From the NCBI GenBank assembly GCA_963752155.1, contig CAVVXH010000002.1, positions 96,001 to 160,000 on the forward strand: a stretch of 64,000 nt of DNA, in the 5' to 3' direction. The position numbers were made by a program, and so were the translations under genes. This stretch comes from an uncultured Parachlamydiaceae bacterium. GTDB taxonomy: Bacteria; Chlamydiota; Chlamydiia; Chlamydiales; Parachlamydiaceae. Below the pieces are notes generated by a model. That model was not told the origin of the DNA and searched no databases. It was given only the letters and a program-made list of their open reading frames with translations. Positions 50,344-50,607 of the stretch are shown here, piece after piece (positions within the stretch are counted from its first letter, which is position 1; each line of letters starts with the position of its first letter).

Positions 50344-50607
50344 ATGGACAGGAAAAAAATAGATAAAGCGTTTTTAGATTCACTAACCCTAGAGAGCTCA
50401 ATGAGCGAGATTCTTGAATTAACGGAGACGTTCAAGTACGACCTCATTAAAGCTAAAAGGGATAGTGAAAAATCTGGAAAATATACAGTTTCCTGTCTTT
50501 TTCGAGTCCGGCAGCTTCTAATTGACCTAGAAAAATTAGGATCCCAATTCCGCAAGCTGTCAATTGCTTATGAAAAGGATTTAGAAAAGAAAAAGAAACC
50601 CAAATGA
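50344..50607 (+). CDS. Hc1 (histone H1-like, HctA) N-terminal-domain homologue
   Basis: DLIKA...RVRQLLIDLEKLGSQFRKLSIAYEK aligns with chlamydial Hc1 NLLKA...RVRTESIKLEKTAKVYRKESIKAEK (from memory). Confidence 0.65.
   Translation: MDRKKIDKAFLDSLTLESSMSEILELTETFKYDLIKAKRDSEKSGKYTVSCLFRVRQLLIDLEKLGSQFRKLSIAYEKDLEKKKKPK

Follow-up and report, generated by a model that had tools for sequence, protein, structure and literature searches.

We analyzed a stretch of 64,000 nucleotides (the window) from an uncultured Parachlamydiaceae bacterium, corresponding to positions 96,001 to 160,000 of contig CAVVXH010000002.1 (here C2; assembly GCA_963752155.1). Positions 50344..50607 on the forward strand of the window hold an open reading frame (ORF) of 87 amino acids, which appears to encode a divergent, tail-less form of the N-terminal domain (N-domain), a two-helix hairpin, of the chlamydial histone-like protein Hc1 (HctA). 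The ORF lies in the early operon of a phage-plasmid. Hc1 compacts the chlamydial chromosome as the replicating form of these bacteria becomes the infectious form. The assignment draws on the list of ORFs, on comparisons with Pfam and hhalign, on an AlphaFold2 (AF2) model and on the ratio of nonsynonymous to synonymous substitution rates (dN/dS).

The gene and its relation to Hc1

The ORF begins with an ATG, and a ribosome-binding site seen in the sequence (AAGGA, 50332..50336, forward strand) is located 7 nt 5' of this start. The protein ends in YEKDLEKKKKPK (also given as AYEKDLEKKKKPK). The stretch AAAAAAGGA is also present upstream of most other copies of the ORF. The gene is under strong purifying selection: the median dN/dS among 13 DNA copies is 0.071 and the maximum ratio is 0.147 (37 of 78 pairs were usable; a fourteenth copy, L007, was left out of this set). 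This selection and the kept position of the ORF show that it is a real gene, and its location agrees with the preliminary description of this DNA.

A word-indexed search returned 21 proteins of 86-137 aa with 69-99% identity to the ORF. Among 300 scored chlamydial genomes, 10 have a close copy; three of these belong to family f1, four to f6, two to f9 and one to f30. The members of the clade have 70-91 aa and have so far been found nowhere but in chlamydial genomes and on contigs of phage size (~37-43 kb). The protein is basic, with 21 Lys and Arg versus 15 Asp and Glu and an isoelectric point (pI) of 9.46. At least half of the sampled words of the 4-kb stretch 49500-53500 are present in 14 metagenome runs from 10 studies, which cover groundwater, soil, cave, freshwater, biofilm, hot-spring and sludge samples.

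The preliminary description had taken the ORF for a homologue of Hc1. A search with the Pfam hidden Markov models (HMMs) indeed returned Hc1 (PF07432) as the best match, with 19.3 bits and E = 0.001 over residues 54-78 only, but the gathering threshold of this family, 23.5 bits, was not reached. The same sub-threshold match was obtained for all 19 close family members (best E = 3.5e-4). When 1.84 billion representatives were searched exhaustively with a profile, only 10 proteins were found at E <= 0.001; all of them have 70-88 aa, and no canonical Hc1 reached this level. Each of these ten distant representatives has Hc1 among its Pfam matches, and only one (P0030, 74 aa) scored above the threshold, with 25.7 bits.

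The comparison of profiles with each other decided the matter. Alignment of the close family with the first 85 residues of 120 chlamydial Hc1s in hhalign resulted in a probability of 93.3%; with the ten distant members added, the probability was 97.1% and E was 5.7e-11 over 78 columns, which include both helices. The score of the real comparison was 62.8, while the maximum for 30 column-shuffled Hc1 profiles was 12.9 (probability <= 0.4%) and the score for a reversed Hc1 profile was 15.5. An Hc1 profile trimmed to the helical core, i.e. without the columns of the basic tail, gave a probability of 96.8%. The identity between the ORF family and Hc1 in the hairpin is about 27%.

The opposite direction of the search was also informative. 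The profile of the ORF family detects 91 of the 300 scored genomes of the phylum; 10 of these have a near-identical copy, and the remaining 81 have weak matches with per-genome E-values from 1e-6 to 1e-2. All ten of the weak loci that were read score 78-123 bits with an Hc1 N-domain HMM built here and are therefore canonical host Hc1 genes. The same HMM gives the 10 genome copies of the ORF family 25.6-30.1 bits. Eight of the 10 genomes with a close copy of the ORF also contain a second, weaker match of the Hc1 type. The host genome of the window itself encodes a canonical Hc1 on contig C11 (146-148 aa, 69.3 bits to Pfam), which is 43% identical to the ORF over 46 aa. Together, these comparisons indicate that the ORF is a genuine, distant homologue of the N-terminal (dimerisation) domain of Hc1.

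The ORF and chlamydial Hc1, which occur in the same organisms, have the pattern DL.KA...RVR...LEK...(Y/F)RK.SI..EK in common. The shorter motif quoted in the preliminary description is present in the ORF as R54-V-R56...L62-E-K64...R70-K71.S73-I74..E77-K78, although two of the dot-spacings given there were one residue short. A second motif, the most conserved one of Hc1 (GNKAASQRVRTGT), covers the loop and helix 2 and is identical across 50 aligned Hc1s. The phage family carries KSGKYTVSCLFRVRQLL at this site, where only R-V-R is retained, and thus lacks the canonical signature.

The AF2 model of the ORF, built with the family alignment, has a predicted local distance difference test score (pLDDT) of 93.7 and consists of helices at residues 8-13 (short), 16-44 and 49-84. 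In the AF2 model of host Hc1, helices 14-35 and 40-76 are followed by a disordered Lys/Ala-rich tail (77-146). The predicted fold of the ORF is the same two-helix hairpin as in the N-domain of host Hc1, with helices in the same order and of similar length. Compared with the Hc1 hairpin, the ORF has an N-terminal extension of 17 residues and 7 extra residues at the junction between helix 1 and helix 2. A sequence profile search of the PDB gave nothing below E = 0.37 and found no solved Hc1 structure. Foldseek gave no match at E <= 0.001 in BFVD or in the PDB; the PDB entries returned were only generic helical hairpins, among them ribosomal proteins, arms of seryl-tRNA synthetase and designed bundles.

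The most obvious difference between the two proteins concerns the C-terminus. The ORF has 9 residues (DLEKKKKPK) after the EK motif, versus ~70 disordered, Lys/Ala-rich residues in host Hc1, and the term 'tail-less' used in the preliminary description is therefore borne out. Distant members have 0-11 residues past the EK motif, and several of them have no basic residue there at all; judged from these sequences, a basic tail is not a feature of the ORF family. The shortest cellular Hc1 that we read has 16 residues after the EK motif. Among the chromosomal Hc1s of environmental chlamydiae (L017-L026), the length varies from 74 to 209 aa by tail length alone, and the N-domain is almost invariant. 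The location of the genes is also different: chlamydial Hc1 with its Lys/Ala-rich tail is chromosomal, whereas the ORF without a tail is on a phage-plasmid. A Pfam score below the threshold and the absence of both signature motif and tail mean that the ORF is a distant, hairpin-only relative of Hc1 and not an Hc1.

Residues K36, L52, R54, R56, K64, G66, R70 and K71 are invariant across the whole family. By ideal-helix geometry only, R56, K64, K71 and K78 form one exposed stripe (resultant 0.87) opposite the hydrophobic core. The same geometry places hydrophobic residues around much of the remaining surface of helix 2, which suggests that this helix packs against more than helix 1. Positions L52, F53, L58, L59, L72 and Y76 of the ORF are hydrophobic; the corresponding residues of Hc1 are S, Q, G, T, E and a variable one.

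The early operon and the phage-plasmid

The ORF is the third gene of a rightward operon, which begins beside a divergent Cro/CI-type gene. The latter (49558..49791, reverse strand, 77 aa) encodes a helix-turn-helix regulator (Pfam HTH_26, E 2.3e-4; phrog_35 'transcriptional repressor', E 2.6e-4) that is 59% identical to its counterpart in the viral contig L039. The first gene of the operon, taken from the ORF list (49920..50147, forward strand, 75 aa), belongs to no Pfam or PHROG family and has a 36% identical homologue at the same place in L039. The second (50080..50313, forward strand, 77 aa) has a 49% identical homologue in L039 and also matches no family; it is read in a different frame and overlaps the first by 68 nt. 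Its product has a hydrophobic, membrane-like C-terminal stretch, and the last codons (GIGIMLALN and stop) are conserved upstream of most copies of the ORF.

On the other side of the ORF, the operon continues into genes for a PD-(D/E)XK exonuclease, a 199-aa protein and a RecT-like protein. The exonuclease gene (50665..51222, forward strand; Pfam PDDEXK_1, 6.6e-7; phrog_298, 6.9e-22) is the next gene after a terminator-like hairpin, and an ORF of 185-197 aa is present at its position in all ten genome loci. The 199-aa protein and the RecT-like annealing protein constitute a recombination module (51841..53374, forward strand; phrog_561 RecT-like, 1.8e-19; phrog_10477, 2.1e-5). The 'phage early operon' of the preliminary description is thereby confirmed, with the nuance that the element is a phage-plasmid.

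The hairpin, found in a scan as a match of 12 pairs followed by a T-run, overlaps the stop codon of the ORF (50604..50635, forward strand). It has an energy of -13.6 kcal/mol and a z of -3.85, and none of 200 shuffles was as good. The inverted repeat AAGAGG...CCTCTT with a T-run is seen by eye in 11 of 14 copies and is part of the minimum free energy fold in 6 of 14; three copies lack it, with the exonuclease gene coming immediately afterwards. In a metatranscriptome, the sole run on record as RNA, a single contig falls on the 4-kb stretch; it covers 50439-50639 and ends at the hairpin, with the reservation that DNA carry-over is possible and that contigs cannot show RNA ends. Runs X15, X16 and X17 are labelled RNA but were graded 'probably DNA' and are therefore uninformative on expression. 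Rfam contains no family that matches within 45000-64000.

The same gene neighborhood is present on other elements. The viral contig L039, which is much more distant, with proteins 36-59% identical to those of the window, has the same gene order around a 45% identical homologue of the ORF. A provirus from IMG/VR (G302, 41.6 kb) contains the same early genes, ParA, the primase-helicase and a full contractile-tail structural module with head protease, major head, sheath, tape measure and baseplate genes. Window positions 45731..63663 are collinear with the half of this provirus that holds its early, replication and partition genes (blastn, 90-94% identity to G302 23420-39857); the breakpoint relative to G302 lies at its position ~23420, in the 5' end of parA. 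The replication and partition module of the window (60123..63714, reverse strand) consists of a primase/DnaB-like helicase (phrog_19, 3.7e-37), a 168-aa ORF (phrog_6444, 4.1e-32) and ParA (phrog_164, 8.5e-37).

A search of PLSDB led to plasmid 1 of Criblamydia sequanensis CRIB-18 (NZ_LK031773.1), a circular plasmid of 89.5 kb that matches the early region with 93% identity (84% cover for window 45731..63663) and on which the replication and partition genes are also annotated. It encodes WP_176454833.1 (47070-47333), which is annotated as 'hypothetical protein' and has 86 of 87 residues identical to the ORF. This is the same gene with the same neighbors, including the PD-(D/E)XK nuclease downstream, on a plasmid that carries a whole phage. 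The plasmid contains ParA, a DnaB-like helicase, terL at 23.2-24.5 kb and a portal-to-tail module at 64.7-87.0 kb; a portal-like DUF1073 protein, a DUF3383 protein and baseplate genes are also present, and blocks of metal-resistance and metabolic cargo are located between the phage modules. Plasmid 'phage group' genes in C. sequanensis and P. massiliensis, as described in PMC7846284, match this element.

The genome from which the window comes contains the major head gene (98% identity) and the sheath gene (94% identity). On contig C2 the structural genes are at 65.7-88.8 kb, the methylase and terL at ~117-120 kb (window 21.0-24.1 kb) and the early and replication genes at 141.7-159.7 kb. This is the same circular order as on the C. 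sequanensis plasmid, with the circle opened beside parA, and the element is therefore a phage-plasmid of ~90 kb that includes the window up to 63663. Head, tail, packaging, replication and partition genes are present on one replicon, as in temperate tailed phages and phage-plasmids. The element is of the myovirus type and belongs to environmental chlamydiae. An alternative view of window 24-46 kb as host chromosome with a split prophage was rejected, since the C. sequanensis plasmid shows cargo within one circular order. A megablast search with 46000-54500 gave no match among phage records, and a literature search found no report on chlamydial prophages. The element adds to a very sparse picture of tailed phages and phage-plasmids in chlamydiae.

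Possible roles of the hairpin protein

The best single explanation is that the protein serves as a tail-less 'poison subunit' of Hc1, i.e. that it has an antagonistic or co-assembly role; we assign this reading a probability of roughly 0.4. According to PMC2848022, Hc1 dimerises through its conserved N-terminus, and DNA is bound by the Lys-rich C-terminus. A protein that consists of only the first of these domains is therefore most simply a pairing module. The ORF protein would oligomerise via its hairpin and would pair with host Hc1. The mixed assemblies would hold fewer DNA-binding tails, and Hc1-driven DNA condensation and silencing could be weakened or retuned while the element replicates. 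Dimerisation, pairing with host Hc1 and an effect on the nucleoid or on development are what we infer for this protein.

A functional analogy exists in other bacteria. H-NST and Hha are small helical proteins encoded on acquired DNA; each is similar to, or binds, the domain through which H-NS oligomerises, and has no DNA-binding domain. Their formation of heteromers and their anti-silencing activity have been demonstrated. The ORF has the same arrangement, namely a putative oligomerisation domain without a DNA-binding domain on acquired DNA. The sequences and fold families are unrelated, however, and a heteromer with the ORF is at present a weak computational hint. This hint comes from the predicted complex of host Hc1 (residues 1-75) with the ORF, which scored 0.48, versus 0.01 for the best of three controls, and was graded 'weak support'. 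The runs agree in at least 94% of the contacts, and the pLDDT of the partner is at least 74. The mark for this score is reached by 116 of 157 solved complexes and by 2 of 215 mismatched pairs; the range up to 0.60 holds only 18 of the 157 solved complexes and both of the mismatched pairs that passed.

The fact that 0.48 falls in this weak band is one of several points that speak against a poison subunit. The two chains are homologous, and the pass may reflect their likeness instead of binding. The invariant motif of Hc1 is cut to RVR in the phage family and 7 residues are added at the junction. Helix 2 is hydrophobic where Hc1 is mostly polar, so that the interfaces may differ, and the exposed basic stripe common to both families resembles a ligand surface more than the core of a dimer. 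Furthermore, a short tail is not restricted to the phage family: six of the ten host Hc1 ORFs that were read have 74-102 aa, and the others 131-209 aa. Finally, phages of other hosts also encode stand-alone Hc1-domain proteins, and the domain therefore probably has a function that is independent of Hc1.

The preliminary description had suggested a dominant-negative mimic. The domain content, the location in the early operon and, weakly, the heterodimer prediction are in favor of this idea; the loss of the signature motif, the extra hydrophobic residues of helix 2 and the stand-alone forms in phages are against a mimic specific to chlamydiae. The dominant-negative idea is plausible, if weakly supported. 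The more specific scenario of an 'anti-histone', which would co-assemble with Hc1 and block or delay condensation, and in this way hold the cell in a state like that of the reticulate body or keep the DNA of the element open, is in our view rather unlikely. If true, it would be the first known case in which a phage manipulates the chlamydial developmental switch via its chromatin protein. The tuning of this switch is a long-standing question, and an element that carries only the pairing domain of Hc1 is a natural candidate for a modulator. An almost identical gene is present in the cultured C. sequanensis CRIB-18, and E. coli offers a readout for toxicity and nucleoid condensation by Hc1, which makes the idea open to direct tests.

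The strongest rival to the poison subunit is a small autonomous nucleic-acid-binding or architectural protein, which we rate as only slightly less probable. The basic dimeric hairpin would bind DNA or RNA, presumably via the basic stripe of helix 2 and the short Lys-rich ends, and would serve the early programme of the element in transcription control, recombination, replication or plasmid chromatin while ignoring host Hc1. Its task would be that of the stand-alone Hc1-domain proteins which other phages and bacteria encode. The residues that are conserved throughout the family and common to Hc1 are largely basic (K36, R54, R56, K64, R70, K71), and R56, K64, K71 and K78 lie on one face. The high pI of 9.46, the additional hydrophobic residues of helix 2, the absence of the signature motif of Hc1 and the position of the gene directly upstream of the exonuclease and RecT genes are also in line with an autonomous function. 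However, Foldseek against the PDB recognized no DNA-binding fold at E <= 0.001, and the short basic ends are not conserved in the distant members. PMC2848022 assigns dimerisation to the N-domain of Hc1 and DNA binding to the C-terminal tail. The original Hc1 paper reportedly found that the N-domain alone does not bind nucleic acids.

The chief point for autonomy is that phages of other hosts have stand-alone Hc1-domain proteins (BFVD, ESM-Atlas and PMC12619734). The latter source reports PF07432 proteins in four large aquatic phages, the 'moraphages'. In BFVD, phage proteins of 59-60 aa named Hc1 or histone H1, from Podoviridae sp. and Pseudomonas phage ZC08, were found at ranks 5 and 9 with E of 0.38-0.46, which is a lead only. 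The nearest named clusters in ESM-Atlas are viral Hc1-domain proteins of 64-86 aa (scores 0.94 and 0.83); the recognition value of 2192 is below the mark of 2300, and this is weak evidence. Canonical Hc1s match phrog_31787 and phrog_31483 weakly, with E from 9e-4 to 0.09. The proteins of moraphages, BFVD and these two PHROGs resemble the ORF in that they are short (59-74 positions), consist of the hairpin only and belong to tailed phages. They differ in that their name or annotation places them in the Pfam family, which the clade of the ORF does not reach, and in that this clade is longer.

The ORF has no match in PHROGs at E <= 0.1, and tblastn against 50,697 phage records gave none at E <= 1. 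The same search with P0030 returned only matches to Lak phages at E 0.5, which are not significant, and a short canonical Hc1 (L021) found nothing at E <= 0.01. No viral contig was found in related-locus searches with the single proteins P0029 and P0027 or with the Hc1 alignment. Hc1-domain proteins, including phage-borne ones, were already known; this unannotated, hairpin-only clade on a chlamydial phage-plasmid is new. Even if the protein is autonomous, it defines an unannotated and mostly phage-borne branch of the Hc1-domain superfamily.

It is improbable, although Hc1 has been reported to bind RNA, that the protein is an early regulator of transcript elongation or translation, which would bind RNA and control read-through of the hairpin before the exonuclease and RecT genes. 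The idea is an argument from position only. The order of a divergent Cro-like gene, two small genes, the ORF, a hairpin and recombination genes recalls the place of N in the pL operon of lambda. The hairpin comes right after the stop codon (z -3.85) in most copies, and the lone metatranscriptome contig that stops there is a hint in the same direction. Three of the 14 copies, however, have no hairpin; the Pfam and PHROG searches revealed no similarity to any antiterminator family, and no Rfam element was found in the region.

Least credible by far is that the ORF is no homologue but a generic charged coiled-coil hairpin with an Hc1 likeness that stems from composition: the sub-threshold Pfam score, the exhaustive search with its 10 short proteins and no canonical Hc1, and the many unrelated hairpins with similar Foldseek scores would fit this, but shuffled (12.9) and reversed (15.5) profiles stay far below the real score of 62.8, matching works both ways, with the family profile finding the Hc1 gene of 81 further chlamydial genomes, and one family representative (P0030) exceeds the Pfam cut-off.

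Cargo and further features of the element

Next to the divergent regulator, two overlapping ORFs of 158 and 208 aa resemble HNH endonucleases (48583..49528, reverse strand; phrog_3377, 7.9e-26; phrog_2340, 1.3e-13). The overlap is 158 nt, and the first of them is annotated on the C. sequanensis plasmid as only 105 aa.

The 94 kb of C2 from 65704 to 159663, which include window 1-63663, contain, in this order, structural genes, cargo, methylase and terL, cargo, early genes, primase-helicase and ParA, and the 350-kb contig extends on both sides. Either the phage-plasmid is integrated here, or the draft genome, which is 80% complete, may contain a mis-join. Window positions 21003-24137 are 93% identical to plasmid positions 23799-26928, which hold a DUF1064 gene, a DNA methylase, a hypothetical gene and the 5' part of terL. 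As this match stops within terL, the genome of the window may have a truncated or replaced terminase gene.

The cargo differs between the elements: that of the C. sequanensis plasmid includes arsenic and heavy-metal genes, and that of the element in the window acetyltransferases, esterases and transporters. In the window, the cargo at 24354-45677 and 54928-57131 is rich in GNAT-type acetyltransferases, and six ORFs match phrog_1249 (24354, 28046, 40121, 41853, 42452 and 54928). The other cargo comprises esterase/lipases, an ABC transporter, a NUDIX hydrolase, a FabG-like reductase and kinase-like P-loop proteins. The site that corresponds to window 53.4-58.7 kb is occupied by an arsenic-resistance block in the C. 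sequanensis plasmid and by a cation-efflux gene in G302. The cargo of the plasmid between terL and the portal gene contains a site-specific integrase (NZ_LK031773.1, 19982-20965) and two AbiEii/AbiEi toxin-antitoxin pairs (21620-23079 and 87994-89450).

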